A stretch of 64,000 bases of DNA from Candidatus Iainarchaeum sp. (GCA_043815085.1 JBDRJG010000001.1:1594-65593); one strand, 5' to 3'. Positions 754 to 21,806 are shown, counted from the stretch's first letter. Notes: a model not told the origin generated them from the sequence alone. Translations and numbers: made by a program.

Positions 754-921
754 TTATTTTGCAAAAAGTTTCATAATTAATGCAATAATAAAGCCTCCAA
801 GCCCGATTATCCCTATTCCAATTGCAGAAATCTTTGCTGTCTGCTCAAATTCTTTTTTCGTCGGCTTTTTCAAAACCTGCCAGACTCTCTTGCATTTCAA
901 TAAAAATGATTTTATTTCCAT
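754..921 (-). CDS. secE: protein translocase subunit SecE/Sec61-gamma (55 aa, not in the ORF track)
   Basis: Manual translation gives MEIKSFLLKCKRVWQVLKKPTKKEFEQTAKISAIGIGIIGLGGFIIALIMKLFAK. It has the basic N-terminus with the 'KKPTKKE' motif and a single C-terminal TM helix. It sits immediately upstream of spt5, the canonical archaeal position. Confidence 0.65.
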   Translation of the reverse strand: MEIKSFLLKCKRVWQVLKKPTKKEFEQTAKISAIGIGIIGLGGFIIALIMKLFAK

Positions 922-955
922 AATTAAATTAGATAGAAAGGGTTTTTAAAATTAT

Positions 956-1345
956 TTAAAATCTATTTGGATGTTCTTTCTTTAAATCCGAAATAACTTC
1001 CCAAATTATATACTCCTCTTTTAATTGTTCAATTATAGCATGATAATTTTCTGCTCCATCATAAACTTTGTAACCTTCTAATCCATCTTTTAATTTATCT
1101 GGAGCCCAATAAGCTAGATAACTTATAAATGGCCAGGGCTGAACTGAAAATTTTTTTGCTCTTGTTTCTAAATAGCTTATACCAGGAAATGTTGGAATAT
1201 TCTCTCTAAGTTCTGCTTTTCTTCTATCAATTTCTTCATTTGTTAAACCAAGAAATTTCTCAATATCCTTATCTTTTTTAAAGGAAATAGATAATTTTCC
1301 ATCTTTTGTAATGTCTTTTCTTATTTTTGCCATTTCAATTCTCAA
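956..1345 (-). CDS. hypothetical protein (129 aa)
   Basis: Long ORF between secE and ftsZ on the same strand. Its start overlaps the ftsZ stop. No recognisable motif. Confidence 0.4.
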   Translation of the reverse strand: MRIEMAKIRKDITKDGKLSISFKKDKDIEKFLGLTNEEIDRRKAELRENIPTFPGISYLETRAKKFSVQPWPFISYLAYWAPDKLKDGLEGYKVYDGAENYHAIIEQLKEEYIIWEVISDLKKEHPNRF

Positions 1346-2441
1346 AAAACTCTATTCCTAATTCTTCCTCTATTTCCTTGTGCTTCAAAGATTCAAGAGA
1401 TTCACTATGCCCAAAAATCTGCGAAGATTTTACACCTGTTACAATGAGCAAAACTCTTATTGATTTTTCCATGTCCTCTGAAATCTGAGCTCCGCCAATT
1501 AATTTTGCATCAGGACTCAATTTTTCTCCTATTGTTCCTATTATTGTTTTGTATTCTTCAAGACTCATGTTTGGTCCTCCAACAACATTTACCAATGCTC
1601 CTGTTGCATCTGAAATATCTACATCTAAAAGAGGATTATTTATTGCTTTCTCAATTGCTTCCATTGCCCTATTCTGGCTGTTAGACTCTCCCATTCCTAT
1701 TAGTGAAACCCCCCCATTAGACATTACTGTTTTTACATCTGCAAAATCTAAGTTAACTAAACCAGTTGTGGTGACTAATTCTGTTACACCTTTCACTGCA
1801 TTTGTTAAAACCTCATCAGCAATCTTAAATGCTGTGTGCAATGGCAAATCAGGAGCCAATTCCAAAAGTTTGTCATTTGGTATAACAATTAAAGTATCTA
1901 CAACCCCTTCTAATCTTTCTAATCCATCCATTGCATTTTCTATTCTCTTTTTTCCTTCCATTGTGAAGGGCAAAGTTACTATTGCAATTGTCAGAGCCCC
2001 TTGTTTTTTCGCAAGCCCTGCAATGACTGGCGCTGCTCCTGTTCCTGTTCCTCCTCCTAATCCGCAAGTGAGAAAAATCATATCTGAACCCACAATTTTC
2101 TTTTTTATTTCTGATTCAGATTCTTTTGCAGCCTCCTGTCCAACCTGTGGATTGCTTCCTGCACCCAATCCCTGAGTCAACTCCTTTCCAATTAGAACTT
2201 TCTGATCTGCATTGGAATAGAGTAAATCCTGTGCATCAGTATTTACTGCAATTAACTCTCCTCCTCTAATTCCAATTTCTTTCATTCTACTAAGAGAATT
2301 ATTCCCTCCTCCGCCTATTCCTATCACCTTTATTTTTGCTGATTGTTTTTTCAAGAGTTCTTCAAGTTCTATATCTATCTCTCTTAACTCAGCCGATGGA
2401 GAATATTCGAAAGACTCATCATCTCTATTTATATCTGCCAT
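1335..2441 (-). CDS. ftsZ: cell division GTPase FtsZ
   Basis: 368 aa. It has the tubulin/FtsZ signature GGGTGTGAAPVIA, an N-terminal IGIGGGGNN and the T7 loop region. ftsZ is typically adjacent to secE-nusG in archaea. Confidence 0.9.
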   Translation of the reverse strand: MADINRDDESFEYSPSAELREIDIELEELLKKQSAKIKVIGIGGGGNNSLSRMKEIGIRGGELIAVNTDAQDLLYSNADQKVLIGKELTQGLGAGSNPQVGQEAAKESESEIKKKIVGSDMIFLTCGLGGGTGTGAAPVIAGLAKKQGALTIAIVTLPFTMEGKKRIENAMDGLERLEGVVDTLIVIPNDKLLELAPDLPLHTAFKIADEVLTNAVKGVTELVTTTGLVNLDFADVKTVMSNGGVSLIGMGESNSQNRAMEAIEKAINNPLLDVDISDATGALVNVVGGPNMSLEEYKTIIGTIGEKLSPDAKLIGGAQISEDMEKSIRVLLIVTGVKSSQIFGHSESLESLKHKEIEEELGIEFFEN

Positions 2442-2561
2442 ATGTTCTAAAAGAAAAGTTTATTTTTAAGCATTATTGTGATTTTAAATTAGTTATTTGT
2501 TGGTTTTAGGGATTATTATAGTTTTAGTTAGATTTTTAAACAGATAAATGTCTCAAAAGCC

Positions 2562-3104
2562 ATGAGAAATATTGAAGAAAAGATTAAGGGGTCTGTAATC
2601 CCAACTGCAGATGAAATTGAAGATATAGTTAGAGCTAAAAAAGCAATTGAATATAATAAGAAAAATAATTTAAATATCCCTTATATTCTCTCTGGTTTAG
2701 GCCCAGATACAAATAAATTTTTAGAAGGGGATTTTAATGGAGAAATAAACTTCCACAAGGAACTTTATGAATATATGATGAACAACACTAAAGAGATCTT
2801 TGGGGTTGACATCAATGCTCTTGACACTGTTGGGAATATTTTACAAACATTTCCCTCTGAGCAAGAAGGAAAATATTTATTTTTTAGTTATCCTCTTCAT
2901 AATCTCAGAACAAGATTAATTGAAAAAGACCTTAAAAGAGAAAAAGCAATTTCAGAAAACTTAAAAATAATCTATGTAAACACAACAAAAAATTTGTTTA
3001 AAAATCTCTTTTATGAAACTCTTGCATTTACAAAATATTTTTTAATTAAAAGAAATAAATTAAAAAATCTTGCTAAAGGGGCTTCTTCTCTTCAATTTCC
3101 TTAA
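2562..3104 (+). CDS. hypothetical protein (180 aa)
   Basis: ORF with coding-like composition and no recognisable motif. Confidence 0.35.
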   Translation: MRNIEEKIKGSVIPTADEIEDIVRAKKAIEYNKKNNLNIPYILSGLGPDTNKFLEGDFNGEINFHKELYEYMMNNTKEIFGVDINALDTVGNILQTFPSEQEGKYLFFSYPLHNLRTRLIEKDLKREKAISENLKIIYVNTTKNLFKNLFYETLAFTKYFLIKRNKLKNLAKGASSLQFP

Positions 3105-3714
3105 TTTCAAGATTTAATCCCAAAATCTCTTTATATTTCTCTTTAAAAAGTTCTATAAATTTCACCATACTTTTTTCAGCATCTAAAATTAATTTGCCAT
3201 CCTTAATCTCAAATTTAAACTCTCGTCTAAAGAAAAAATCATTCAATGCCTTAATTTTTTCATTTAAATCTTCAATTTTTTTAAGAACTTTTATTTTATA
3301 AATAATCTCTTTTCCTGCCAAGGGATTATTAAAATCCACCATAACTCTTCCCCCTGAAACAGTCAAGACTTTCCCAATCTTATTATCAAAATTAAAGACT
3401 GCTCCTGGAATTGGATTTATCTTGTGCTCTATAAAGACTTTTATTGGCATTCTCTGAATTAAATCTGGATTTCTTCTTCCAAATGCTTTTTCCGGACTTA
3501 ATTCTATCTCATATTCGCCAATCTCCTTTCCAATTAAAAAATTATCAATTTCCTCAAGGAACATCCCATTTCCAAGAGAGAAGACAAATGGTTTTGCTTC
3601 TGCATTAGGATTTAGTTTTTTAATTTCATCTGAAATATTCGAATCAAAAACCTCCCCCTCTTTTATTCTTCCTGTAAATTCGATTTCAATGAAATCATTT
3701 TTCTTAAGGCTCAT
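3073..3714 (-). CDS. FKBP-type peptidyl-prolyl cis-trans isomerase (archaeal long-type, SlyD-like)
   Basis: 213 aa. The N-terminal FKBP domain is visible (DFIEIEFTGRIKEGEVFDSN ... FVFSLGNGMFLEEIDNFLIGKEIGEYEIELSPEKAFG), followed by an insert-in-flap/C-terminal domain. Confidence 0.7.
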   Translation of the reverse strand: MSLKKNDFIEIEFTGRIKEGEVFDSNISDEIKKLNPNAEAKPFVFSLGNGMFLEEIDNFLIGKEIGEYEIELSPEKAFGRRNPDLIQRMPIKVFIEHKINPIPGAVFNFDNKIGKVLTVSGGRVMVDFNNPLAGKEIIYKIKVLKKIEDLNEKIKALNDFFFRREFKFEIKDGKLILDAEKSMVKFIELFKEKYKEILGLNLEIKEIEEKKPL

Positions 3715-4158: not shown

Positions 4159-4323
4159 ATGGGAAAAATACCAGAAGCACAAAATAGATTATTTAAGAAT
4201 GTTTTTGTCTGTAAGAATTGCAAAGCAAAGATAAAATCAGATATTCAAAAAGTTTTAAAGGGAAAAGTAAGATGCAGAAAATGCGGAAAGAAAGCTTTTC
4301 GCCCAATAAAAAAGAATAAATAA
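4159..4323 (+). CDS. rpl40e: ribosomal protein L40e (54 aa, not in the ORF track)
   Basis: Manual translation gives MGKIPEAQNRLFKNVFVCKNCKAKIKSDIQKVLKGKVRCRKCGKKAFRPIKKNK. It is a small basic protein with a CxxC...CxxC zinc ribbon that resembles archaeal L40e. It starts 1 nt after the eif5a stop. Confidence 0.7.
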   Translation: MGKIPEAQNRLFKNVFVCKNCKAKIKSDIQKVLKGKVRCRKCGKKAFRPIKKNK

Positions 4324-4389
4324 CAAAATTGATAGTCTTACCATTATCCTTTTAAACCTAATTTTACTTAACGTTAAGAGGGAAAAAAT

Positions 4390-5817
4390 ATGAATTTTAT
4401 TGGATATGATATTATATTTTTAGTAGTATTTCTAATTTTTATTTCTGCTTTTCTCTATTTTAATCGAAAAAATCTGAAAAAAGAAGGACTTTTATTTTTG
4501 TATAAAACTACTTGGGGAATGAAGCAGATTGACAAAATTGGAAAAAGATATCAAAAAACCCTCAAATTTCTTAGTTACATCTCAATAACTATGGGATATC
4601 TCCTAATGGTTTCTATGCTTTATTTACTTGGAAAGATAATTTATCTCTATGTTACATATCCTTCTATTGTTCGAGCAATAAAAGTTCCCCCAATCACACC
4701 TCTTATACCTTATCTACCCCAAATGTTCAAACTTGATTTTCTGCCTCCTTTTTATTTTACATACTGGATAATAATTCTCGCTCTAATTGCTATAACTCAT
4801 GAATTTGCGCATGGAATACTTATGAAAAGATATGGAGTAAGAATAAAATCAACTGGTTTTGGTTTTTTTCCTTTCTTTCTTCCAATATTTTTAGCTGCAT
4901 TTGTTGAGCAAGATGAGAAGAGCATGATAAAAAGCAGCAAATTTAATCAGATGGCAATTCTATCTGCAGGGACCTTTGCGAATGTATTAACTGCTATTTT
5001 CTTTTTTGTAATAATGTGGTTATTCTTTACAGTCTCTTTTGTTCCAGCAGGAGCTCAATTTAACACCTATTCATATTCTATTGTTGCTATTTCTGGAATT
5101 AGTTCTATTAACAATATATCTCTTGAAAATGCAACTTATTTGCAATTATTGAATTTTTCTAATGAAGATGGATTAAATAAAATAGAATATCAAGGCAAAA
5201 CTTACCTGATGAACAAGATTGGTTTAGAAGAACAAAAAGGAACCTCTAATCTTTTAATATTATATGAAGACGCTCCAGCCATTAACGCGAATTTGGAAGG
5301 GGCGATAGTATCTGTGAACAATATTAAAATAAACGGTTGGGAAGAGTTTGGAGAACAAATTTCAAACTTCTCTCCTGGAGAGAATATAACAATAAAAACA
5401 ATTATAGATGATGAAGTTAAAAATTATGAGATAACTCTTGGAGAAAGTCCAGATAATCCTGAAGAGCCATATGTGGGGGTTGGATATGCTGAACAAAAGA
5501 GAAGTGGACTGCTCGGAAAAGTAGTTGAAACCCTTTCTTCTTTTAAGAAACAATATATATATTATGAGCCAAAATTTGAAGCAGCAGAATTTCTTTATGA
5601 TTTGCTATGGTGGATTGTTTTAATAAGTATAAGCGTTGCACTTGTAAATATGCTCCCTATGGGGATCTTCGACGGAGGAAGGTTCTTTTACCTAACAATT
5701 CTGGGCCTAACCAAATCAAAGAAAAAAGCAGAAAAATGGTTCAAAATTTCAACTAACTTTTTATTATTCCTATTAATTGTTCTTATGATTTTATGGGCGA
5801 TTAGTTGGATAAAGTAA
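4390..5817 (+). CDS. site-2 protease (M50 family intramembrane metalloprotease) with an internal PDZ-like domain
   Basis: 475 aa polytopic membrane protein. It has the HEFAHG zinc-binding motif in a TM helix and a C-terminal NMLPMGIFDGGR (LDG motif). A soluble insert lies between them. Confidence 0.75.
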   Translation: MNFIGYDIIFLVVFLIFISAFLYFNRKNLKKEGLLFLYKTTWGMKQIDKIGKRYQKTLKFLSYISITMGYLLMVSMLYLLGKIIYLYVTYPSIVRAIKVPPITPLIPYLPQMFKLDFLPPFYFTYWIIILALIAITHEFAHGILMKRYGVRIKSTGFGFFPFFLPIFLAAFVEQDEKSMIKSSKFNQMAILSAGTFANVLTAIFFFVIMWLFFTVSFVPAGAQFNTYSYSIVAISGISSINNISLENATYLQLLNFSNEDGLNKIEYQGKTYLMNKIGLEEQKGTSNLLILYEDAPAINANLEGAIVSVNNIKINGWEEFGEQISNFSPGENITIKTIIDDEVKNYEITLGESPDNPEEPYVGVGYAEQKRSGLLGKVVETLSSFKKQYIYYEPKFEAAEFLYDLLWWIVLISISVALVNMLPMGIFDGGRFFYLTILGLTKSKKKAEKWFKISTNFLLFLLIVLMILWAISWIK

Positions 5818-6901: not shown

Positions 6902-8839
6902 ATGATGTGGAATTTATACGAAGATGAAGAGTTTCTTAAACCTCTTAAATTCTCAAATGGGAAAACTCAGGAGGATGTTGTAAGAGAAGTTCTTGAAGCA
7001 ATAAAAGAGGGGCACAAAGTAATTTTTATAAATGGGAAATGTGGGACCGGGAAAAGTGCGATTGCGTTAAACATTGCAAAGAAGATTGGAAAGACATCAA
7101 TAATAGTCCCTGGAAAGAATCTCCAGCAACAGTATAAAAAAGATTATGAGAATAATAAATATCTTCTTAAGAAAGATAACACAAAACTAAAGATAAGTGT
7201 AATAACGGGAAGAAATAACCACAAATGCAAATTTCTTGAGGATGATAAAAATGCAATTCCCGCAATAAAAAAAGAAATTAATTCAAAATTATATGATATT
7301 TTTTCTGGAAAGAGAGAAAAATTGAATAGAATGACTGCGAATGATTTTTCTGCAGACAATTTTAATATTCCCTGCAGAATAGAAATAAAAGAAAAAAATA
7401 TCTCTAAAATAAAAGAATATCTAAAGCAAAACAAAAAAGTGAACATAGCTGACTTTGAGAGATTAAGTGATATAAAGAGAATCCCGATTGCATCTCTCTG
7501 CCCCTATTGGAGTCCTGTTTTCCCTGAAGATTTTGAATCAAAATATCTTGGAAAAGTTGAAAAAAGAAAATATAAAGGATTAAATGGAAAAGAATTTATC
7601 TTTTATCTCAGAAAACCCGGATGTAAATTTTATGAACAATTTAATTCTTACATAGATTCTGATGTTATCGTATTTAATTCATTAAAATATGAATTTGAAT
7701 TTGCAATGAATAGAAAACCTTTTACTGAAGCAGAAATTATAGACGAATGTGATGAATTTCTCGATAGTTTTGCGAATCAAAGAACAATAAATATAGACAG
7801 ATTGCAAAATTCGCTCTCACAAATACCTTCCTCGAATAGAGAAAATTTTCAAAAAATACAAGAGATTATGGAAATTCTCAAGCATCTAAAAACAGACAAG
7901 CAAGTTTTAAAATCATTGGATACAAATGAGATTATCCCTCTTAAAAAAACAGGAATCTATGATTTAATTAATATTTTCCTAAAAGAGCCTGGATTTCTAG
8001 AAGATATTGACGAAGATAGCTATGCCTATGATATTGAAAAAACTGCATTTATATTTGAGCATTTTCTTGACGAGAGTTATGTTATATTTAATAAAAAAGA
8101 GGAAAATCTAATTGCAAATATTGTCACAACAAATCTCTCTAAAAAATTCAAATGGCTAAAAGATAAGAATAAAGTCCTTATTTTAATGTCTGGAACGATT
8201 CATTCAAAAGATGTTTTAAAAGATATCTTCGGAATTGAAGAATTCAAATTAATAGAAGCGGAGACTAAACAGCCCGGAGAAATAAGAATAAGAAGAACAG
8301 GACTAGAGATGGATTGTAAATATTCAAACTTTTCTAATAACAAATTTACACGAAAAGATTATCTTTCTGCATTTGACAGATGCATTGATATTGCTGAAAA
8401 ACCAGTGCTCGTGCATGTGAATGGATTTTCTGACTTAGCAAGTGAGGATGAGATTAAAAAATTTAATCTAAAAAATTTTCCATCTAGAAGGAATTTAATT
8501 GAAAGTCAAAATGAGGACAAGGAAGGATTAATAGTTCAAAATTTTAAAAATAAAAAAACAGACATCTTATTTTCAACAAGAGTGTCTAGAGGAATGGATT
8601 TCCCTGGAGAGCAATGTCGAAGCATAATTTTCACTAAATATCCAAATCCAGACATAAAAAACTCTTTTTGGAGAATTTTAGGAAAAACACGCCCGATGCA
8701 TTATTGGAACTTTTATCGGGACAAAGCGCGTAGAGAATTGCTGCAAAAAGTATACAGGGGAGTAAGACATGAAGGAGATTATGTTTATGTTTTAAGTCCT
8801 GATAAAAGAGTTACTGATTTTTTTGAAAAAACAAATTAA
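6902..8839 (+). CDS. Rad3/XPD-like (DEAD_2 family) helicase, putative
   Basis: 645 aa. It has a Walker A motif INGKCGTGKSAIALNIA. Four Cys residues in the N-terminal half (NHKCKF, IPCRIE, SLCPYW) may ligate an FeS cluster. The C-terminus DILFSTRVSRGMDFPGEQCRSIIFTKYPNP resembles the XPD/DinG helicase C-terminal motif. Confidence 0.55.
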   Translation: MMWNLYEDEEFLKPLKFSNGKTQEDVVREVLEAIKEGHKVIFINGKCGTGKSAIALNIAKKIGKTSIIVPGKNLQQQYKKDYENNKYLLKKDNTKLKISVITGRNNHKCKFLEDDKNAIPAIKKEINSKLYDIFSGKREKLNRMTANDFSADNFNIPCRIEIKEKNISKIKEYLKQNKKVNIADFERLSDIKRIPIASLCPYWSPVFPEDFESKYLGKVEKRKYKGLNGKEFIFYLRKPGCKFYEQFNSYIDSDVIVFNSLKYEFEFAMNRKPFTEAEIIDECDEFLDSFANQRTINIDRLQNSLSQIPSSNRENFQKIQEIMEILKHLKTDKQVLKSLDTNEIIPLKKTGIYDLINIFLKEPGFLEDIDEDSYAYDIEKTAFIFEHFLDESYVIFNKKEENLIANIVTTNLSKKFKWLKDKNKVLILMSGTIHSKDVLKDIFGIEEFKLIEAETKQPGEIRIRRTGLEMDCKYSNFSNNKFTRKDYLSAFDRCIDIAEKPVLVHVNGFSDLASEDEIKKFNLKNFPSRRNLIESQNEDKEGLIVQNFKNKKTDILFSTRVSRGMDFPGEQCRSIIFTKYPNPDIKNSFWRILGKTRPMHYWNFYRDKARRELLQKVYRGVRHEGDYVYVLSPDKRVTDFFEKTN

Positions 8840-8849: not shown

Positions 8850-9563
8850 TTATTGAGTTTTAACTGATTCTTTCTGTTTTAAGAGCATTTTCCAGATTAA
8901 ATATACTAAAACTATAAGATAAATTATGCTAAGCCAAATAATTACTGCAGATAAAATTGGACTACTTTTTACAAACACCTCCCCAAAGTAAGTTTGAATA
9001 AAAATTAGGGGAATCAATCCAAGTCCAGTTCCCAGCAAAAAATTCCATGTTTTCATCTTACTCAAACCTGCTAAATAACTGAACAAATCAGAAGTTGTAA
9101 GAGGATTTATTCTAAGAATAAAGAGAGAGAAAATTCCGTATTTCTCTGAAAAATTGTCAAACTTTATTCTTAAATTTTTGTTAATTTTTCTTTCGACAAA
9201 ATTTCTTCCATATTTTCTTGCTATTCCAAAAGCTATTAATGCCCCAAGTAAATTCCCTATAAGTGTCAGAATCCCTCCATAAAATGCCCCAAATAAAACT
9301 CCTCCAGCAACATATAAGACAACAGCTGGGATTGGAGCAAGAACACATTCTAATATCACCAAAAGAATAAACATTAATTCTCCGAATATTCCGAAAGAAT
9401 TCACAAAAGATATAATTGAATCTGGATTATTATGTACAAGAGAATATATTACTCCTGAAGAAAAAGAGGAATAGAAAAATATTGTTGAAATTAAAATTAA
9501 GATAAGTATAATTAACCAGTTTTCTTTAAGGAATTTTAAAGATTTCTCTACTCTTTTTCCCAT
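8850..9563 (-). CDS. DedA/TVP38/SNARE-associated family membrane protein (paralog 1)
   Basis: 237 aa multi-TM protein with DedA signature stretches (YVAGGVLFGAFYG; RINPLTTSDLFSYLAGLSKMK). Confidence 0.7.
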   Translation of the reverse strand: MGKRVEKSLKFLKENWLIILILILISTIFFYSSFSSGVIYSLVHNNPDSIISFVNSFGIFGELMFILLVILECVLAPIPAVVLYVAGGVLFGAFYGGILTLIGNLLGALIAFGIARKYGRNFVERKINKNLRIKFDNFSEKYGIFSLFILRINPLTTSDLFSYLAGLSKMKTWNFLLGTGLGLIPLIFIQTYFGEVFVKSSPILSAVIIWLSIIYLIVLVYLIWKMLLKQKESVKTQ

Positions 9564-9605: not shown

Positions 9606-10307
9606 CTAATTGGAAGCGATTTTTTGTCTTTTTTTCGTCTTTTTGAAAAAGAGAAAATACAAAAATCCCAATAAAAGAGCAGTTAAATAAATTATTGCAA
9701 TTCCCAAGAATATTTTAAACAAAAGAGGATTCTTCCCAATTTCTTTTCCAAAGTATGTCTGGATGAAAATTGCAGGAGCCAGTCCTAAAAGTGTCCATAT
9801 TAAGAATTCCCGTAATTTCATCTTTGTTAGGCCGGCAAGATAACTCCAGATATCTGAAGAAGTTAAAGGATTTACTCTAAGAATAAATATTGAAAGTTTT
9901 CCGTATTTGTCAGAAAAAGCATCAAATTTATCAATATGCTTTTTTTCTATTTTTTTCTCCACAAAAGCCCTTCCATATATCCTAGCAATTTTGAATGCAA
10001 TTGAAGAACCGATTGCTACCCCAATCATTATGAGAATCCACGAGACATAAGGCCCAAAAACAATTCCTCCAGCTACGTAAAAGAAAAATGGATGAATCGG
10101 AGCGAGAACAATCCCTGCAATAATCAAGAGAATATAAATTAAAAAAGAAATTCCTTTAAATGAAGAGATAAAAAGAATCATCTCTTCCTGATTAAAATTT
10201 ATTAAAGAATAAAAAAACCCTCTTGTAATATAAGAATATAATAGAAATCCCAAAATAATAAGGAAAATAGCAAAAATTATCCAATCAATTAATCTCTTTT
10301 TACGCAT
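9606..10307 (-). CDS. DedA/TVP38 family membrane protein (paralog 2, tandem duplicate)
   Basis: 233 aa. It is collinear with 8850-9563 (YVAGGIVFGPY; RVNPLTSSDIWSYLAGLTKMK). Confidence 0.7.
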   Translation of the reverse strand: MRKKRLIDWIIFAIFLIILGFLLYSYITRGFFYSLINFNQEEMILFISSFKGISFLIYILLIIAGIVLAPIHPFFFYVAGGIVFGPYVSWILIMIGVAIGSSIAFKIARIYGRAFVEKKIEKKHIDKFDAFSDKYGKLSIFILRVNPLTSSDIWSYLAGLTKMKLREFLIWTLLGLAPAIFIQTYFGKEIGKNPLLFKIFLGIAIIYLTALLLGFLYFLFFKKTKKRQKIASN

Positions 10308-10351
10308 GTTTTAACTAAGTTTATTCTCTTTAAAAGGAATACGCCTCCGGC

Positions 10352-10450
10352 ATAAGTCTCGCTTTTAGAACAACGCCCTCTAATTTTATCTTGAAATATA
10401 TACGTATAATCTCTTTTTAAAAATGAGGCTGCTACTTAGTGGGTGCAGAA
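10352..10450. repeat. roughly 100-nt intergenic direct repeat, copy 1 (the twin is at 11713-11810)
   Basis: The copies are nearly identical. The only internal difference is A5 versus A4. Core sequence: TAAGTCTCGCTTTTAGAACAACGCCCTCTAATTTTATCTTGAAATATATACGTATAATCTCTTTTTAAAA(A)TGAGGCTGCTACTTAGTGGGTGCAGAA. Confidence 0.8.
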
Positions 10451-10465
10451 AAGAAGATTAATGAG

Positions 10466-11635
10466 TTAGAAAACAAGTTCTTTAGGACCTTTTAAATCAT
10501 CTCTAATCTCTGGATTATCCCGAGGATTATAAGCCCCTTCATTTTTAATTCTTATTTGAGAATCTCTTGTAACATATCCTATTTTCTTTGATTTTATGCC
10601 ATATTCTGACGCAATTTTAATAACTCCTTCTGGATCTGGAGTGATAATCACCATCCCTTGACCCATATTCCAGGTTTTATATGCTTCAATATCTGAAACA
10701 TTTCCTAATGCTTGCGTATACTTCATAAACTCGGACGGTTCAAAAGGAGCGTCTATTATTGCTCCTAATTGGGAAGGTTTTAATATCCTCCCAAGTTTTC
10801 CAGGAACTCCTCCGCCAGTTATATGTGCTACTCCATGAACTTTCGTCTTTGGCTCTCCGTTGTATCCTCCAAACATATCAACAACTGCAGCAGTATAAAT
10901 CTTTGAAGGAGTTAATGCTAGATCTGCTAAACTCGTATTTCCTCTTTTCCAAGGGACTTGATGCCAATTGTCACCATGATTATTTTTCATAATTTTTCTA
11001 ACTAAAGATAAACCATTTGACCTGAATCCTTCTTCTCTCAATCCAACTAAATAATCTCCTTCTTTAATTTCTTTTCCAGTAAACAATCTATCTCTATTAG
11101 CAAACCATACAACCGCCGCTCCCCAATTATAATTAAAGGATCCAAATCCTCCAACCCTGTTTCCAAGTTCAGCTACTTCTCCGTTAACAATTGCTACATT
11201 TGCTGCTTTTGCAGCACCAATGTACCCTTCTGCTAATTGTCTTATCTCTTCAATAAATGGTTTTTCAGAAGTTCCAAGTGAATTAACATCAAGAATTGAA
11301 CCAATTAAAACTGGCTCTGCCCCTCTTACAACTGCATCATCTGTAACCATTGCAAATAAGTCATAAGCGATTGTTCTATGATTCTTGACTCTTTCAGCCA
11401 ATTCCATTTTTGTTCCGACACCATCAAATCCAATATTCATTAAAGTTCCAGTAGGCAAATGAGAAACATCAATTGCTCTAACTCCTGTAAAATCATCAAA
11501 AGGAACAATTACTTCTCCCAATTTTCCTTTTCTATTATCCCAAGTTCGTTTTGCAGCATTATATAAAATTTTAGAAACATCATCGCCCAAATCAATATTC
11601 ACTCCTGAATCTGCATAGGTTGATTTTTGTGCCAT
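10466..11635 (-). CDS. PurM-like protein (AIR synthase-related; phosphoribosylformylglycinamidine cyclo-ligase family)
   Basis: 389 aa. The N-terminus MAQKSTYADSGVNIDLGDD resembles the PurM N-terminus (YKDAGVDIDAG). PurM N- and C-domain architecture is present. Confidence 0.55.
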   Translation of the reverse strand: MAQKSTYADSGVNIDLGDDVSKILYNAAKRTWDNRKGKLGEVIVPFDDFTGVRAIDVSHLPTGTLMNIGFDGVGTKMELAERVKNHRTIAYDLFAMVTDDAVVRGAEPVLIGSILDVNSLGTSEKPFIEEIRQLAEGYIGAAKAANVAIVNGEVAELGNRVGGFGSFNYNWGAAVVWFANRDRLFTGKEIKEGDYLVGLREEGFRSNGLSLVRKIMKNNHGDNWHQVPWKRGNTSLADLALTPSKIYTAAVVDMFGGYNGEPKTKVHGVAHITGGGVPGKLGRILKPSQLGAIIDAPFEPSEFMKYTQALGNVSDIEAYKTWNMGQGMVIITPDPEGVIKIASEYGIKSKKIGYVTRDSQIRIKNEGAYNPRDNPEIRDDLKGPKELVF

Positions 11636-11712
11636 TATTTAATATGTTTAATTTTATTTTTAAAGATTATTGTGATTTTTTTCTAAAATTCTTTTATATA
11701 TTAAATCCCGCC

Positions 11713-11810
11713 GTAAGTCTCGCTTTTAGAACAACGCCCTCTAATTTTATCTTGAAATATATACGTATAATCTCTTTTTAAAATGAGGCTGCTACTTAGT
11801 GGGTGCAGAA
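11713..11810. repeat. roughly 100-nt intergenic direct repeat, copy 2 (the twin is at 10352-10450)
   Basis: See copy 1. The two copies bracket the purM-like gene. Each lies in the spacer between consecutive minus-strand genes. Confidence 0.8.
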
Positions 11811-11834
11811 TAACACAGATAAGAATCCAAGTCC

Positions 11835-12818
11835 TTACAACTCTTCCCAAGAAACCACTTTATCAGAAGTTTTTCCTCTTAGTTCATTGAGTGTTAGTTT
11901 TTTCTCTAAAAGATAGCGTTCTAGTGTTTCCTTTAGACCATCTATAATCCCATCTCCCTTTAACATTACTTCTGTGCAATATTGTAGATTATTGGCTCCG
12001 TATGCTAAAAAAGATACTATTGTTTCTAAATCAGTACTTGTTCCCCCAGAAGCAGAAACAGGGATTCCTGTTTTTGCCAAATTATTTACAATAAGGAAAG
12101 CGAAAGGTTTTATTGTGTGGTAAGAAATCCCTCCTGGAGTTGTTCTGCCCTTGGTATTTAATCTTGGAGAAAGATTTGCTGGATTAATTGAAGTTAAACC
12201 TGCTATTGTGTTAATTGCCGCAATCGCATTAGCCCCATTCGTATGGCAAACTTCGGCAACTAATCTTTCATTTGGGTAAACCACATAAGGTAATTTTGGC
12301 ATTATTATTCCTTCCTTTCTAAAGTTATCTGCCACGGTTCTTGTAATTCTTCCACATAAATCATGGTTCTGACCTATCAAATAACCTCTCCCATGAGCAT
12401 CACTATGTGGGCAAGAGAAATTTAATTCAAACCCATCTATGAGGGTCTTAGAAAAGGCCTGAGCAAGAGTTTTCCATTCTTCTAAGTTATCCGAAGCGAA
12501 GAGACTTACAAGCAAAAGATTATTTGGAAATTCTCTTTTTAATTTCTTAGTTTGTTCTACCCAATAGTCGATAGATAACTCTGAACCCATTTCATAATTT
12601 TGTAATGCAGTTTTCTCACCCCCATAACTCAAATATCTCATATGCGGAGATTTATCTTTTAAGGGATTAAGAACCACACTTTTGGTTATTGCCCCAGCCC
12701 ATCCTTTAGAAAATGCTTGTGAGATTGCACAATAATCTCTGGTGGGGGGTCCAGAAGCTAGAATAAAAGGACTATCTAATCTCTTTCCACAAAAATCTAC
12801 GGATAAATTAGCGTCCAT
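11835..12818 (-). CDS. dihydroorotate dehydrogenase-family TIM-barrel flavoprotein (PyrD-like)
   Basis: 327 aa. It starts with FCGKRLDSPFILASGPP. Mid-protein NFSCPHS and a C-terminal VSASGGTSTDLETIVSFLAYGANNLQYCT resemble DHOD/DHPD family motifs. Confidence 0.55.
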   Translation of the reverse strand: MDANLSVDFCGKRLDSPFILASGPPTRDYCAISQAFSKGWAGAITKSVVLNPLKDKSPHMRYLSYGGEKTALQNYEMGSELSIDYWVEQTKKLKREFPNNLLLVSLFASDNLEEWKTLAQAFSKTLIDGFELNFSCPHSDAHGRGYLIGQNHDLCGRITRTVADNFRKEGIIMPKLPYVVYPNERLVAEVCHTNGANAIAAINTIAGLTSINPANLSPRLNTKGRTTPGGISYHTIKPFAFLIVNNLAKTGIPVSASGGTSTDLETIVSFLAYGANNLQYCTEVMLKGDGIIDGLKETLERYLLEKKLTLNELRGKTSDKVVSWEEL

Positions 12819-12906
12819 AAAAACCCAAAAGGAAAATACTTTAAAAGAATATATTTCTTTAATCGCTATAATAACACTCTGTTTGGGCGTTGAATAGAAT
12901 GAGATA

Positions 12907-12986
12907 CGCCCCCAGCAGGAATCGAACCTGCGAGCCCAAAGGGCCTGGTTCTCAAGACCAGTGCAATACCACTATGCGATGGAGGC
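12907..12986 (-). tRNA. tRNA-Ser (anticodon UGA), class II with a long variable arm
   Basis: Hand-folded cloverleaf. The acceptor stem is GCCUCCA/UGGGGGC. The D-loop is AGUGGUA. The anticodon stem CUGGU/ACCAG closes loop CUUGAGA, giving anticodon UGA. The variable arm is 13 nt (GCCCUUUGGGCUC). The T-arm is GCAGG-UUCGAUU-CCUGC. The discriminator is G. No CCA is encoded. Confidence 0.7.
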
Positions 12987-13735: not shown

Positions 13736-15220
13736 TTATTTAAAAATTATTGGCTTTTCTCTCTTATAATAATCAATTGCTTCTTGCAAACGAGGCCTTG
13801 ATTCTGCATAAATTGTCAGAATATTGCTTCCCTTTTTTAATTTATTTCCAACATGCGCAGAAAGATATAATCCTGAAGATTTATCAACTGGGCATCCTGC
13901 AATTCTTGCAAGCAAGTTAATCTTTATATTATCAATAGATTCTACTCTCAAAGAAGAACTTGCAAGAATATCTTTTTTGAATTTTCCTAATTCAAGATGT
14001 TTTATACTTCCATTCTGGGCTTTAATTATCTCTACAAATTTTTTAAATGCTTTTCCAGAATCCAAAATTTCTTCTGCTCTTGCAAAACCTTTTCCTTTCT
14101 TTGTCTTTCCTGTCATTTCTAGGAGTTGCCCAGCTAAAAACAGGGATTTTTCTCTCAAATCTTTCGGCCCCCCAGTTTCAAAAGGGTTCAAAACTTTAAT
14201 CACATCCATAAGTTCAAGTATTGGCCCAATTCCATTTCCAATTGGTTGATCTCCTTTGGTTAAAACAACTTTTAATTTAATTTTAAAATGCTTTCCTAAC
14301 CTTTCAAAACTCTTCTTTAGTTTAAGTGCTGATTTTTTGTTTACCTTCGCTGTCTTTCCATAAGGAATATCTATAATAAGATATTTACTTCCAACTGCAA
14401 TTTTTTTAGCCATTATAGAGGCTAAAAGTTGTGCATAGGGGTCAATTTTAAGTATTCTCTCTACTCGAATTATTTTTGAATCTGCTGGAACTAATTCCAG
14501 TGAGCCGCCCCAAACAAGAAATGCTCCTGTTTTTCTGATTATTTTTTTTAATTCTTTAATTGAAAATTCTACCTGGGCAATTGATTCTATCACATCTGCT
14601 GTCCCAGTAGCACTAGTTATTGCTTTCGAAGAAGTTTTTGGAACAGTTAGTCCTGCAGCAGCACAGATAGACACAACAATAGGGGTTGTTCTATTCCCTG
14701 GAATTCCTCCTATACAATGTTTATCCACTATAAACTTTCCAGGCAGAGAAAGAACATCCCCTGATTCAATAAATGCCTCAATCAGACTAATCGTTTCTTT
14801 GAGATTCATCTTATTTTCATACATTCCTGAGACAAAGAGCGCAATCTCTGGATCAGAAAGAGAATTATTTACTATATCTTTTATTATCTCTTTAATTTCT
14901 TCTTTAGAAAGTTTCTTTTTATCCACTTTTTTTCTTATATAAGAAAGGCTAACAGGGGATTTTGCAATATTTACATCTACTCTCTGCCCTTCTCGCAAGC
15001 TAAATAATTCTTTTATTTCAGAAGAGATTCCAATTTCATCTTCCTTAATAATTTTCTCAACAATATCTACAATAGAAGAAAATTCGCCATCCTTCCTTGA
15101 GAGTTTCTCAATAGATATTCTATCATTCTTATGAATCCCCATCTTTTCTGCAGTCTTTAGATTAAGCATAACTACCGGAATTCCTGCAGACCATTTTAAC
15201 AAACGAACTTTTAGCTCCAT
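13736..15220 (-). CDS. deoA: AMP phosphorylase / thymidine phosphorylase family protein (archaeal DeoA-like)
   Basis: 494 aa. The pyrimidine-nucleoside phosphorylase core is present (DKHCIGGIPGNRTTPIVVSICAAAGLTVPKTSSKAITSATGTADVIE). An extra N-terminal roughly 80-aa domain is typical of archaeal AMP phosphorylases of about 500 aa. Confidence 0.7.
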   Translation of the reverse strand: MELKVRLLKWSAGIPVVMLNLKTAEKMGIHKNDRISIEKLSRKDGEFSSIVDIVEKIIKEDEIGISSEIKELFSLREGQRVDVNIAKSPVSLSYIRKKVDKKKLSKEEIKEIIKDIVNNSLSDPEIALFVSGMYENKMNLKETISLIEAFIESGDVLSLPGKFIVDKHCIGGIPGNRTTPIVVSICAAAGLTVPKTSSKAITSATGTADVIESIAQVEFSIKELKKIIRKTGAFLVWGGSLELVPADSKIIRVERILKIDPYAQLLASIMAKKIAVGSKYLIIDIPYGKTAKVNKKSALKLKKSFERLGKHFKIKLKVVLTKGDQPIGNGIGPILELMDVIKVLNPFETGGPKDLREKSLFLAGQLLEMTGKTKKGKGFARAEEILDSGKAFKKFVEIIKAQNGSIKHLELGKFKKDILASSSLRVESIDNIKINLLARIAGCPVDKSSGLYLSAHVGNKLKKGSNILTIYAESRPRLQEAIDYYKREKPIIFK

Positions 15221-17104: not shown

Positions 17105-17202
17105 GCGAAGCCTTTTTAAATCCCCTTTTTCTTGATAATTTATCCAGGGTAGAAATAAAATGATAATTTCCGCATTATTACCAAACATAAACAATATAGA
17201 AA

Positions 17203-18156
17203 ATGCCTTCAACAAAATCTCCAAGAAAAGGAAGTTTGCAGTTCTGGCCTCGAAAGAGAGTCAACAGATTTTTACCTAGTGTAAACTGGAAAGCTATTAA
17301 TTCTGGAAAGAGTCTAAAGGGGTTTATTGGATACAAGGCAGGGATGGTATCTGTTGAAATTAAGGATTTAACCCCCAATTCTATGACAAAAGATAAAAGA
17401 ATAATTATTCCAGGCACAATAATAGAATGCCCCTCTATGAAAATATTTTCTGTGAGATTCTATAAAAATGGCAGAGTTGCAAAAGAAATTCTTGCTGAAA
17501 ACCCAGATAAAGAACTTAAAAGAAGAGTCAAGCTTCCAAAAGAACATAAATTTAAATTAGATTCTGTAAAAAGTGAAGAATACGACAATGTTTCTATAAT
17601 TGCTTATTCTCAAGTGAAAAAAACAGAGATAAAGAAAAAACCAGATATGACAGAAATTGGATTGAATGGAAGTTTAGATGAAAAAATGAACTTCATTAAA
17701 ACGCATTTAAATAAAGAAATCTCTTTAGCTGAAATTTTCTCTTCAGGAGAACTTGTTGACTTAAGGGGCTTAACAAAAGGAAAAGGTTTTCAGGGCCCAA
17801 TAAAGAGATTTGGGGCCCACTTAAGATTCCACAAATCTGAAAAAGGAGTGAGAAAAATAGGGAGCATTGGACCTTGGCATCCTGCTCGTGTAACTTTCAG
17901 AGTTCCAATGGCCGGGCAGATGGGGATGTTCACACGAGTGCATTATAATCAAAAAATAATTTCCCTAGGCAAAGCACAAGATTCCCAAGATAAACTTAAA
18001 AATCTAAAAAATTATGGAAACCTTAATACAGATTATCTAATTGTTACGGGCTCTGTTCAGGGAGTTCCAAAAAGACCGTTATTAATTACAGCTACTCTTA
18101 GAACGAGCAAAATGCAGAAAAAGAAAAATTATGAATTTTTGGAGATTAAAAGATGA
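17203..18156 (+). CDS. rpl3: ribosomal protein uL3
   Basis: 317 aa. PRKGSLQFWPRKRV is the hallmark L3 N-terminus, and FQGPIKRFG...GSIGPWHP is in the conserved core. Confidence 0.9.
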   Translation: MPSTKSPRKGSLQFWPRKRVNRFLPSVNWKAINSGKSLKGFIGYKAGMVSVEIKDLTPNSMTKDKRIIIPGTIIECPSMKIFSVRFYKNGRVAKEILAENPDKELKRRVKLPKEHKFKLDSVKSEEYDNVSIIAYSQVKKTEIKKKPDMTEIGLNGSLDEKMNFIKTHLNKEISLAEIFSSGELVDLRGLTKGKGFQGPIKRFGAHLRFHKSEKGVRKIGSIGPWHPARVTFRVPMAGQMGMFTRVHYNQKIISLGKAQDSQDKLKNLKNYGNLNTDYLIVTGSVQGVPKRPLLITATLRTSKMQKKKNYEFLEIKR

Positions 18157-18455
18157 GACACAATGTTAACGAAAAAGTTTTGAAGAAAGGAATTGAAGAA
18201 ATTTTCAAAAAGAACATAAATAATGCAGAAAAAGAATTAGCCACACGATTAGAAGAGAGTAAAAATGAAACAGATAAAAAGGTGTTTGATTATTCTTTTA
18301 AAAATTTATATGATGTCAAAGAAAGATATCTTTCTTTGGTAAGTGCTGTCTCACATTATTTAGATAAAAATAAAATAAAAAAATATGAAGCTGAAATAGA
18401 TAATATGATAGATGAAAAAATTAGGGAATTAAAAAATTATATGGATAGTAAATAA
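18153..18455 (+). CDS. hypothetical K/E-rich protein (100 aa) inserted between rpl3 and rpl4
   Basis: Its ATG overlaps the L3 stop (ATGA). Predicted helical, charged protein. Not a known r-protein family. Confidence 0.5.
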   Translation: MRHNVNEKVLKKGIEEIFKKNINNAEKELATRLEESKNETDKKVFDYSFKNLYDVKERYLSLVSAVSHYLDKNKIKKYEAEIDNMIDEKIRELKNYMDSK

Positions 18456-18469
18456 AAGGGAATACAAAA

Positions 18470-19264
18470 ATGAAAGCAAAAGTATATGATACAAATGGAA
18501 AAGAAAAATCTCAGGTAGAACTTCCTAAAGAATTTTCTGCTGTTATTCGAGAAGATGTTGTTGCAAAGGTTCTTGAAACAAAGAAAAAACAGCAACCTTA
18601 CTCTCCATCTCCTGTTGCTGGAAAACAGCATTCTGCAAAAGGAAAAGTTAGACATAAAAGACACGTCTGGAGAAGCGGTTATGGAAGAGGTCAATCAAGA
18701 GTTCCAAGAAAAATATTTTCAAGAAAAGGTTCTCAATTCATTTGGCAAGGAGCTGAAGTCCCCCAAGCAAGAGGGGGTATGAGAGCGCATCCTCCAAAGG
18801 TTGTACAATTCTTAAGAGATTTAAAAATAAACAAAAAAGAACTGAGAATTGCTTTTGAATCTGCATTGAGTTCAACTGCAAATGAAAAATATGTTCTAAA
18901 AAAATATTCTAATCTTGAAAAAATTGATAAAAAAGTCCCATTAGTTCTTGTCTCAAACATTACAGAATTGAAAATAAAAGAACTGCTTAATGCATTAAAG
19001 AATATTCTTGGAAAAGAATTATTTGGGATAGCAATAAGAAAGAAATCTGTTCGAGCAGGAAAAGGAAAACTTCGAGGAAGAAAATATAAATCTAGTGCTG
19101 GAATGCTTTTTGTTTTAGGAAATAATGAAAAATTAAAAACAAATGCATTTGAAGTAAAAAGAGTCAAAGAACTAAATGTATTTGATTTAGCTAAAGGTGG
19201 TCTAGGAAGATTAACAATTTACACTGAAAAAGCAATTAGAGATTTAGGAGAAAAAAGAAAATGA
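18470..19264 (+). CDS. rpl4: ribosomal protein uL4
   Basis: 264 aa. Archaeal L4 signature (SWGTGRAVARIPRV-like region: HSAKGKVRHKRHVWRSGYGRGQSRVPRK). Confidence 0.9.
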   Translation: MKAKVYDTNGKEKSQVELPKEFSAVIREDVVAKVLETKKKQQPYSPSPVAGKQHSAKGKVRHKRHVWRSGYGRGQSRVPRKIFSRKGSQFIWQGAEVPQARGGMRAHPPKVVQFLRDLKINKKELRIAFESALSSTANEKYVLKKYSNLEKIDKKVPLVLVSNITELKIKELLNALKNILGKELFGIAIRKKSVRAGKGKLRGRKYKSSAGMLFVLGNNEKLKTNAFEVKRVKELNVFDLAKGGLGRLTIYTEKAIRDLGEKRK

Positions 19265-19503
19265 ACCTAAAACCATTAGCAACTGAAAAAGCAATAATGA
19301 AAATAGAAGCTGAAAATATTTTAACATTCGTAACTGAATTAAAAGCGACAAAATCTGAAATAAAAAAGGATATTGAAGAATTATTCAGGGTCAAGATTGA
19401 TAAAATATCCACTCAAATAAGAAACAATCAAAAGATTGCTTATGTTAAATTAAACAAAAAAGATCTTGCAATTGATGTTGCAACTAAATTGGGATTGATG
19501 TAA
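19261..19503 (+). CDS. rpl23: ribosomal protein uL23
   Basis: 80 aa. Conserved L23 fold signature. Operon position between L4 and L2. Confidence 0.85.
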   Translation: MNLKPLATEKAIMKIEAENILTFVTELKATKSEIKKDIEELFRVKIDKISTQIRNNQKIAYVKLNKKDLAIDVATKLGLM

Positions 19504-19504
19504 A

Positions 19505-20200
19505 ATGGGAAAAAGAATAATTCAACAAGCGCGCGGGCACGGAAGTATGACTTATCAGGCAAAGAAAAAATCTTTTGTCTATAAAATTCAATATCCAAGG
19601 AAACTCCAAGGAGAAGGAACAGTTATAAAGTTGATAAATTCTTCTGCACATAGTGCGCCACTGGCTAAAGTCTTGTACAATGAAGGAAGTTTCTACATTC
19701 CTGCCTTTAAAGAAATGGTTGAAGGCCAAAAAATTTCTTTTGAAGGGGAATTGAAAAATGGGAGCATTCTTCCTCTGGAAAAGATACCAATTAAAACATT
19801 TATATACTGCATTGAATCTCGCCCGGGAGATGGGGGAAAATTTATTAAAACAGCTGGAAGCAATGCGATTGTAACAAGAGTTGTTGGAAATCAGATTTTA
19901 GTTTTAATGCCTTCAAAAAAGGAAAAAAAATTTAATCCAAAATGCAGAGCAATAATAGGGCAGATTGCAGGACATGGAAGATTAGATAAGCCAATTATAA
20001 AGGCCGGAAAAATGCATTATATTAAAAAATCAAAAAATAAATTATGGCCTAGAACAAGCGCAGTTAAAATGAATGCAATAGATCATCCTTTTGGTTCGGG
20101 TAGAGGAAAGAATATTAAGAGCAAAATTGCAAAGCGAAATGCACCTGCTGGAAGAAAAGTTGGCTTAATTAGACCAAAAAGAACAGGTAAAAAGAAATAA
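19505..20200 (+). CDS. rpl2: ribosomal protein uL2
   Basis: 231 aa. MGKRIIQQARGHGS at the N-terminus and the conserved AIDHPFGSGRGKN motif. Confidence 0.9.
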   Translation: MGKRIIQQARGHGSMTYQAKKKSFVYKIQYPRKLQGEGTVIKLINSSAHSAPLAKVLYNEGSFYIPAFKEMVEGQKISFEGELKNGSILPLEKIPIKTFIYCIESRPGDGGKFIKTAGSNAIVTRVVGNQILVLMPSKKEKKFNPKCRAIIGQIAGHGRLDKPIIKAGKMHYIKKSKNKLWPRTSAVKMNAIDHPFGSGRGKNIKSKIAKRNAPAGRKVGLIRPKRTGKKK

Positions 20201-20201
20201 A

Positions 20202-20507
20202 ATGGAAATAACAAATATGTATAATACTTTGAACGGAAATGAATGTCAAAAACATTTAGAAAAGTTAATTAAAAATGAAGCAGAAGGGAGAATAGTAATT
20301 TGGGGGCACAAACATAAAATTGATGTTGAGGATAGCAACACTTTTCATAACATAGCTCAAGAAATGAAGGTCAAAAATATTAACAATTTTTGTGGAGGGT
20401 TACATTATATTGGAGAGGTTGAAAAAGAACTTTGGACAATTTGCCTAGATGATGAATTAAATCAAGCTTTTTTAGACAAATATGGGGAGGAATATCAAAT
20501 TAATTAA
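20202..20507 (+). CDS. hypothetical protein (101 aa) inserted between rpl2 and rps19
   Basis: It starts 2 nt after the L2 stop. The first codons MEIT and 18 nt around the start are identical to the start of rps19 (direct repeat 20199-20216 / 20505-20522). Cys/His-containing. No known family. Confidence 0.5.
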   Translation: MEITNMYNTLNGNECQKHLEKLIKNEAEGRIVIWGHKHKIDVEDSNTFHNIAQEMKVKNINNFCGGLHYIGEVEKELWTICLDDELNQAFLDKYGEEYQIN

Positions 20508-20508
20508 A

Positions 20509-20904
20509 ATGGAAATAACAAAAAAACAAATTACATATAAGGGAAAGACTATTGAAGAGCTGAAAGCCTTGGATGTTCGTGAATTTGCCAAATATCTTCC
20601 GTCAAGAGGAAGGAGAAGTGTTCTCAGAAATTTCCAGAAAATTGAATATTTTACTAAGAGAGCAAAAGAGAAAATTGAAAGAGGAAAAAAGATAAAAACT
20701 CATAATCGAGGATTGGTTATTGTGCCCCAGCTAATCGGAATGAATATTCAAGTTCATAATGGAAGAGCTTTTTTACCTGTTCAAATTGAGCCAGAAATGC
20801 TTGGACACAGATTAGGAGAGATGGCTCTTACAAGATCAAAAGTAACACACAGTAAAGCAGGTGTTGGAGCAACAAAAGGAAGTAAACATAAGGCTAAAAA
20901 ATAA
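20509..20904 (+). CDS. rps19: ribosomal protein uS19
   Basis: MEITKKQITYKGKTIEELKAL...GLVIVPQLIGMNIQVHNGRAFLPVQIEPEMLGHRLGEMALTR matches S19. The ORF-track start at 20482 is an upstream in-frame extension. Confidence 0.85.
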   Translation: MEITKKQITYKGKTIEELKALDVREFAKYLPSRGRRSVLRNFQKIEYFTKRAKEKIERGKKIKTHNRGLVIVPQLIGMNIQVHNGRAFLPVQIEPEMLGHRLGEMALTRSKVTHSKAGVGATKGSKHKAKK

Positions 20905-20906
20905 AA

Positions 20907-21805: not shown

Positions 21806-21806
21806 A

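Follow-up and report, generated by a model that had tools for sequence, protein, structure and literature searches.

Archaea of the DPANN group (Diapherotrites, Parvarchaeota, Aenigmarchaeota, Nanoarchaeota and Nanohaloarchaeota) have tiny, highly rearranged genomes, and to our knowledge almost nothing has been reported on their non-coding elements. The small-RNA genes of nanoarchaea carry a box A at −26/−27, start at a purine and end in a T-stretch terminator (PMC3491384). Integron attC sites, archaeal ones included, are imperfect inverted repeats that fold as single-stranded hairpins (PMC9668308). The attachment (att) sites of elements that target tRNA genes through tyrosine recombinases, such as those of the SSV and pTN3 types, leave part of a tRNA 3' end repeated directly downstream of the tRNA. 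Here, a 64,000-nt stretch of Candidatus Iainarchaeum sp. (GCA_043815085.1 JBDRJG010000001.1:1594-65593; GC content 30%), hereafter called the window, is analysed for two near-identical direct repeats that enclose a purM gene. Sequence comparison shows that the two repeats are copies, one complete and one shortened, of a non-coding DPANN module of ~125 nt, named E here. This module is apparently undescribed, and literature searches for a described DPANN promoter element or non-coding RNA like E returned nothing relevant. The best-supported mechanism, to which we assign a probability of about one half, is that E would be an autonomous unit of a promoter and a short RNA.

On the plus strand, the repeats occupy 10347-10450 (copy 1) and 11708-11810 (copy 2) and are offset by 1361 nt. 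An earlier reading made from the sequence alone (the sequence-only reading) had placed a core at 10352-10450 and 11713-11810 with a single homopolymer A as the sole difference, and this description holds. The indel is A5 at 10419-23 in copy 1 against A4 at 11780-83 in copy 2, and apart from it the copies are identical over 98 nt; the match reaches 5-6 nt beyond that core on the left, with 2 mismatches there. A 61-nt core (<=3 mismatches) occurs exactly twice in the window and in 0 of 100 shuffles, and neither blastn nor an nhmmer profile search finds a third copy in the 64 kb. As the same reading had stated, both copies lie in spacers of consecutive minus-strand genes, all genes around them being on that strand. 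These are a dihydroorotate dehydrogenase (DHOdh)/PreA-like gene (11835-12818) upstream of copy 2, purM of the AIR synthase family (10466-11635, 389 aa; Pfam AIRS/AIRS_C, TIGR00878) as the single gene between the repeats, and a VTT/DedA-family membrane gene (9606-10307) downstream of copy 1. The tRNA-Ser that had been noted nearby is tRNA-Ser(UGA) at 12907-12986, also on the minus strand. Logan unitigs of run SRR27458547 (k=31) stop 30-31 nt inside the repeats, as a k=31 graph does at a true repeat: unitig L001 corresponds to window positions 10421-11743, and unitig L002 ends at 11781. This gives the repeat independent support, although such unitigs back the repeat itself and not the linear gene order.

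E occurs in DPANN genomes and metagenomes of the Woese-/Pace-/Diapherotrites type, usually once per contig; the labels of the relatives are Woese-, Pace- and Nanoarchaeota. The first clue to the family was a weak match just past purM in L003 (L numbers denote the individual sequences compared), whose purM is 83% identical. The blocks common with L003 were built into a degenerate search pattern, GCACCCA-N3-AGTAG-N7-9-TTTTAAAAAG, which matches 5 DPANN genomes among the GTDB representatives and 13 metagenome contigs, once in each. One pattern match, in L015 (Hyphomicrobiaceae), has no similarity downstream and is regarded as chance. In most matches the sequence downstream of the pattern, which the search did not force, is homologous, and family members score E = 1e-24 to 1e-32 with a profile hidden Markov model (nhmmer). 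The exact 25-mer of the repeat has no match in the GTDB representatives or IMG/VR, and the degenerate pattern has none in IMG/VR. E is therefore not a pair of repeats confined to this locus and lacking in relatives, the outcome that would have spoken against a family, but a widespread one.

Read in the sense of purM, module A of E is TTCYGCACCCA-N3-AGTAG-N8-TTTTAAAAAG, in which TTTTAAAAAG is box A (TATA). A variable AT-rich spacer of ~20 nt follows, and then a conserved TTC/AAGATAAA. Module B is a G/U-rich segment of ~60 nt without a conserved fold; it consists of box 1 (GGGYGTT), box 2 about 31 nt later (e.g. GCTCGGCGTGGGCG) and a T-rich stretch. In the 327 kb of sequence fetched, the three blocks of module A are never found apart from each other. 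E as a whole is modular: a lone second module A is present in L014, and a lone module B in L017 and in L024, where it stands directly after a tRNA. In L017, module A also precedes a different RNA. The genes that flank E are heterogeneous across the family, share no common function and are sometimes on the opposite strand. In L003, the E after purM is cut inside module B by an opposite-strand tRNA-Arg(GCG) (L003 9184-9351).

Copy 1 in the window (E1; 10328..10454, minus strand) is full length. The alignment with other family members covers it from one end to the other (nhmmer profile positions 5-129, E=3e-29), and it holds module A, box A, the spacer, a putative transcribed segment with both G-rich boxes and a T-run. 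Module A of E1 (10413..10450, minus strand) reads TTCTGCACCCA-CTA-AGTAG-CAGCCTCA-TTTTTAAAAAG; its box A has one extra T that is unique to E1, all other members including copy 2 having TTTTAAAAAG. The predicted transcription start is 10392 on the minus strand, the A of TTC/AAGATAAA, 29 nt past the first T of TTTAAA. The putative transcript of ~61 nt, with an A-rich 5' end, would correspond to module B (10332..10392, minus strand), in which box 1 (GGGCGTT, 10372-10378), GAGACTTAT, box 2 (GCCGGAGGCG, 10342-10351) and the T-run (10332-10335) follow one another. Copy 2 (E2; 11707..11810, minus strand) has a canonical module A and box A (11774-11810) and box 1 (11733-11739), and box A geometry predicts its transcription start at 11753 on the same strand. 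E2 stops after ...CGGCGGG (...GAGACTTACGGCGGG, 11707-11712) and has neither box 2 nor the family T-run. The 5' edge of the identity between the two copies is the 5' edge of the family, and the copies diverge within module B.

Of the 55 window genes of at least 150 aa, 23 have a TTTA[AT]A whose first base is at −29 to −27 relative to the ATG, and this distance implies mostly leaderless mRNAs. Both neighbours downstream of E follow the rule, the own box A of purM (11659-11664) starting 29 nt and that of the VTT gene (10329-10334) 27 nt before the ATG. When the −29 rule is applied to E, it lands on the purine of the conserved TTC/AAG at 10392 and 11753 on the minus strand, so that E has box A at about −26 to −29 from a predicted purine start, as expected of an archaeal promoter. 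In L017, the rule lands 1 nt before a three-hairpin UUCG RNA (z=−6.0), and in L011, tRNA-Asp begins exactly 29 nt after its box A (L011 903-943). The latter geometry suggests leaderless tRNA transcription as in Nanoarchaeum equitans, with no RNase P requirement. The sequence-only reading had seen a T-run followed by a TATA-like ATACGTATATATTT; this needs correction, as the TATA/box A is TTTT(T)AAAAAG, which contains the T-run, and ATACGTATATATTT falls in the interval from box A to the predicted start, which is variable in the family.

Because VTT and purM have their own box A, and because the neighbours of E elsewhere are unrelated or on the opposite strand, E is best read as an autonomous unit. 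The GCACCCA-N3-AGTAG block of module A and box A (TTTTAAAAAG) would direct the archaeal RNA polymerase to the purine 29 nt downstream, and the product would be a G/U-rich RNA of ~60 nt without a stable fold. The last ~12 nt of this RNA would copy a tRNA 3' end, namely the T-stem 3' strand, the acceptor 3' strand and the discriminator, and an oligo-T stop would follow. Any transcript of E2, which has no 3' box, would end at a weak T4 after ~69 nt or run into purM. Two small, very stable UUCG-tetraloop RNAs without an Rfam match were seen among the relatives. One is the three-hairpin RNA of L017 (7854-7937), which has the same module A promoter block upstream as its presumed driver; the other, in L024, is on the reverse strand downstream of the E variant of that contig and has two hairpins in a stem (z=−5.5).

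E resembles the small-RNA genes and tRNA-half genes of Nanoarchaeum equitans (PMC3491384) in having a box A TTTAAA ~26-29 nt before a purine start, a short predicted product of ~60 nt, a T-stretch, a location near tRNA genes in changing contexts, and a DPANN host. It differs from them in lacking C/D or H/ACA boxes, a tRNA-half structure and a stable fold. Furthermore, E has the invariant GCACCCA-N3-AGTAG block, which is not described for archaeal promoters, and its 3' end copies a tRNA 3' end.

The lack of a fold is seen in several ways. At the gathering level, Rfam finds only tRNA-Ser in the window, and a scan of 10250-11900 at E<=10 gives only chance matches, outside or at the edge of the repeats. 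Single-sequence folds of either strand are no better than shuffles (z = +0.1 to +1.2), and RNAalifold predicts 0 pairs for ten module B sequences. A candidate helix, GGGYG with YRCYC, was rejected: it has 0 compensatory pairs, is kept only via G·U/G·C changes, is absent in the subfamily of the window, and its observed values are equalled by shuffles in 325-500 of 500 trials. The small structured non-coding RNA that the sequence-only reading had considered thus finds no support in Rfam, folding or covariation, and a short unstructured transcript remains likely. Two weak Rfam matches inside the purM coding sequence are taken as chance, one to RAGATH-12 (10766-10833, minus strand; 21 bits against a gathering threshold of 75, E=0.21) and one to an S4 leader.

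Several observations weigh against the promoter–RNA unit. The transcription of E and its start site are deduced from geometry alone, and any function of an RNA that has neither a fold nor an identified target would be hypothetical. The invariance of module A is partly forced by the search pattern, although the L003 element and the second L014 copy were found independently of it. Some members have only a short T-run after E, or none. A recurring tag derived from a tRNA end, found in L026, L017 and L011 and described below, fits a DNA recombination site as well as it fits an RNA. The linear order of the window rests on the original assembly, and the k=31 graph equally permits DHOdh-E-VTT plus a circular or tandem purM+E unit.

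The tag in question is related to box 2. In several genomes, box 2 is the 3' end of tRNA-Asp(GUC), comprising the T-stem 3' strand, the acceptor 3' strand and the discriminator. The 11-mer CGGCGTGGGCG is identical in the tRNA-Asp and the E of one contig, L011. Likewise, CTCGGCGTGGGCGTT is common to the tRNA-Asp of L017 and the E of L021 and L026, and the variant box of L010, GGTCGGGGCGT, equals the variant tRNA-Asp end of L030. The 11-mer is multi-copy and co-oriented at gene boundaries, with five copies in the 3.2-kb contig L026, one per spacer (683-3240). L017 has three copies (631, 6318, 6784) and L011 two to four (1004, 1276, 5806, 6858); in each of these two contigs an intact tRNA-Asp precedes the copies and shares their strand. 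Some of the copies are preceded by a recurring GAGACACTTTTAT.CCTC motif, which resembles GAGACTTATGCC in the window. Two tag units fold like internally deleted tRNA-Asp relics, and others do not fold. The recurring 11-mer has the look of a tag that marks gene boundaries, or of scars left by repeated recombination. Within the window no multi-copy tag is found, and tRNA-Asp lies outside it; the box of copy 1, GCCGGAGGCG/TAT, resembles the tRNA-Ser end, GGGGGCG/TAT (GGAGGCGTAT vs GGGGGCGTAT), in likeness only.

Related sequences occur apart from E. The tRNA-Ser 3' end and trailer in the window (GGGGGCG/TATCTCATTCTATTCAACGCCC; 12880-12914, minus strand) contain a GGGCGT/ACGCCC inverted repeat, and the trailer shares the 15-mer TTCTATTCAACGCCC with the module B paralog of L024. 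The trailer (~12880-12906) resembles module B in its first half and may thus represent a third relative of this module, a partial one. Isolated CGGGGGCG/TT boxes are present in genomes of purM relatives, at 4146-4216 in L004 (also in L005 and L006) and at about 2658 in L014. In L004, a GTTAATCC-TTAGG-ATTAAC hairpin comes before the box, whose neighbours are HEPN and RadA. These isolated boxes may be further tag units of the subfamily found in the window.

The position of E relative to purM bears on how the repeats arose. In the window (copy 1) as well as in L003 and L026, E starts 17-20 nt past the stop codon of purM; in L026 the DNA alignment runs unbroken from purM into E. The closest relatives of the DHOdh gene (91, 83 and 69% amino acid identity) have neither E nor purM downstream; their homology covers the promoter and the gene only, that of L029 spanning 12899-11835 with no E downstream. 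L034 is syntenic with the window on both sides, its homology ending at the tRNA-Ser 3' end (12906), the left edge of a slot, and resuming at the VTT start codon (10310), the right edge. In this slot L034 carries an ORF (open reading frame) of 198 aa and an acetyltransferase where the window has DHOdh–E2–purM–E1, and L035 agrees. Therefore, the slot beside the tRNA gene is variable, and DHOdh–E2–purM–E1 is what this particular lineage carries in it. In the tRNA-Ser ortholog of L034, which ARAGORN does not detect, ~45 nt past the anticodon-loop region separate the two parts of the match (4290-4325 / 4371-4418); the interruption is probably an archaeal tRNA intron that the window copy lacks.

The ancestral position of E in this clade would be immediately after purM. 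A purM+E unit may have recombined into a resident E, or a tandem duplication may have been followed by loss, and either route would leave purM between direct repeats. The 98-nt identity would then reflect a recent event or gene conversion. The edges of the identity fit recombination or gene conversion of two E copies, or insertion of purM+E at a resident E, better than a random segmental duplication. Since it lies between recombinogenic direct repeats, purM could be easily lost or amplified.

The main rival explanation assigns the tRNA-like end of E a role in DNA recombination. E, or at least its box resembling a tRNA 3' end, would be the att-type core of a tRNA-targeting tyrosine recombinase. 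Single-gene units such as purM would enter or leave between such cores, and the repeats would be attL/attR-like products of a cassette insertion beside tRNA-Ser. We consider this a real possibility, though an unlikely one; it and the promoter–RNA unit could both be true. The box has the sequence of the tRNA-Asp 3' end and changes along with it from lineage to lineage, the 11-mer stands in every spacer of L026, and in L011 and L017 its copies lie co-oriented past an intact tRNA-Asp with different genes between them. In L011, for example, an 11-nt repeat is found 5.8 kb from tRNA-Asp on the same strand, as an att-type arrangement would have it. The two units that resemble internally deleted tRNA-Asp relics also agree with this explanation, as do the movement of DHOdh and purM(+E) as precise single-gene units, the location of the whole block in a slot of variable content that opens at a tRNA 3' end, and the enclosure of exactly one gene by the direct repeats. 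However, the genes between tRNA-Asp and E in L011 and L017 encode a helicase, an NTP-transferase, MscS, NUDIX, a methyltransferase, glycosyltransferases and Fic, and no integrase. The corresponding interval of the window holds DHOdh and purM only. Among 27 window proteins scanned, 20 of them mid-sized, which are a subset of the window ORFs, there is no integrase or tyrosine recombinase; FtsZ, ribosomal proteins, glycosyltransferases and similar proteins indicate an ordinary chromosome. Moreover, the 98 identical nt of the window are the promoter-like part, whereas the tRNA-like box differs between the copies or is missing. The window does not have the tag in multiple copies, L017 also has a module A without any box ahead of a folded RNA, and no matches to viral contigs were obtained.

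The att-like duplication that the sequence-only reading had suggested is partly supported. What stands of it is the shared purM+E unit, the slot beside tRNA-Ser and a 3' box that equals a tRNA 3' end; what does not is a tRNA-like identical part, since this box lies outside it, and no integrase was found among the proteins scanned. E is like the att scars of tRNA-targeting elements in that variable genes lie between copies of a partial tRNA 3' end, the block in the window starting at such an end. It is unlike them in that no integrase or mobile-element genes were found, the units are single genes of housekeeping type, and the repeated part in the window is mainly promoter-like rather than a tRNA-like core.

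A more far-reaching conjecture is that DPANN archaea of the Woese-/Pace-/Diapherotrites type use short units that terminate in a tRNA 3' end as boundaries of single-gene cassettes, E being the most elaborate unit with its own promoter block, and that the cassettes are shuffled between slots by a recombinase yet to be identified or by RNA-guided recombination. This is a long shot. If true, it would amount to integron-like gene shuffling in which tRNA-end sites replace attC hairpins, and it would explain both the bracketing of purM and the tag at every gene boundary of L026. As in integron cassettes, including those of archaeal integrons (PMC9668308), single genes are parted by a short site that recurs in one orientation (L026), and one gene is enclosed by two sites (the window). 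In contrast to attC, E and the tag units have no such hairpins, no IntI was found among the proteins scanned, and the cassette genes have their own promoters. An integron attC was also rejected on folding: with each copy folded as single-stranded DNA on either strand, z is +0.4 to +0.85, and the only inverted repeat is the palindrome TTTTAAAA. A miniature inverted-repeat or other small transposable element was rejected as well, there being no terminal inverted repeats, two copies in 64 kb and one per contig elsewhere.

The promoter–RNA unit remains the preferred explanation of E. A module of ~125 nt with invariant promoter-proximal blocks has been kept across order-level lineages and recurs at gene boundaries, so that E would be one of two things: a small RNA, not described before, that has a promoter element of its own, or the trace left by the movement of single genes. 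Either outcome gives a handle on regulation or genome plasticity in DPANN archaea, in the form of a promoter element, a candidate small RNA and candidate recombination sites.

A regulatory cassette for the flanking genes is rather improbable. According to this explanation, the T-run would end the upstream gene, the TATA would serve as an extra, co-regulated promoter for both purM and VTT, and module A would be an operator or activator site. Both copies point to a downstream gene, a T4-5 run lies 45-55 nt past the upstream stop codon, E2 has neither its own box 2 nor a terminator before purM, and E stands 5-57 nt after a co-directional ORF in 10 of ~16 loci. However, a canonical box A stands before both VTT and purM, at the distance typical of leaderless genes. 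In L013, L016 and L021, E is followed by genes of the opposite strand, and the neighbours have no function in common. The conserved module B and T-run would also be left unexplained. Of the terminator/promoter cassette put forward by the sequence-only reading, the T-run and a box A with the right geometry are therefore retained, but not a promoter of the flanking genes.

It is very improbable that the arrangement is an assembly artefact or reflects another topology, in which the genome would read DHOdh-E-VTT and purM+E would be circular, tandemly amplified or joined via the repeat from another strain. A loop would agree with the k=31 graph, where the unitig of purM begins and ends in repeat sequence. 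However, the A-run and the 3' edge set the copies apart, and the unique sequence that flanks them is different for each. In addition, typical reads exceed the ~100 nt of the repeat, as do the large k-mers with which metagenome-derived genomes are assembled. The deposited 72 kb contig, which is labelled Candidatus Diapherotrites archaeon and encodes identical purM and VTT proteins, has the identical arrangement.

A structured cis-regulatory RNA (riboswitch or leader) or a structured small-RNA family for purine-related genes, which the position of E2 5' of purM and the presence of purM (three genomes) and purA (L024) beside E might suggest, is largely refuted and scarcely credible, as the Rfam, folding and covariation results given above apply equally to a leader upstream of purM or VTT, and as the link to purM is one event of shared ancestry in which E lies 3' of purM.

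Further candidates were tried and rejected. A small ORF in the E transcript is contradicted by inspection: there is no start codon, and the frame relative to GGGCGTT differs among members. A C/D or H/ACA small RNA is not supported, because the aligned sequences have no C box and no hairpin, CUGA is present only in L012 and L014, and there is no significant Rfam match of the snoRNA type. A split tRNA 3' half does not fit either, as only the last 11-15 nt match tRNA-Asp, with no T-loop or T-stem 5' strand, and an intact tRNA-Asp is present on the same contigs as the tRNA-Asp-like E ends. Pairing of module A (GCACCCA, N8) with module B has, on inspection, one A·C mismatch in most members and variable positions without covariation. 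A replication origin or iteron was discarded since GGGYGT boxes are not clustered outside E, where their background is 0.31 per kb.

The wider surroundings of the repeats are ordinary chromosomal context. A large ribosomal-protein operon (L3, L4, L2, S5 and others), followed by clustered genes for glycosyltransferases, radical-SAM proteins and UDP-galactopyranose mutase, occupies window positions 17200-32100 and 34300-50100, in which no mobility genes were seen. An AMP phosphorylase gene lies at 13736-15220 on the minus strand. On the other side of the repeats, an XPD-like helicase gene (6902-8839) is present in the window and in L035 but not at that position in L034. Next to it, the VTT/DedA gene downstream of E1 has a tandem paralog; the two (8850-9563 and 9606-10307) share ~70% DNA identity over aligned stretches and are in tandem in L034 too.

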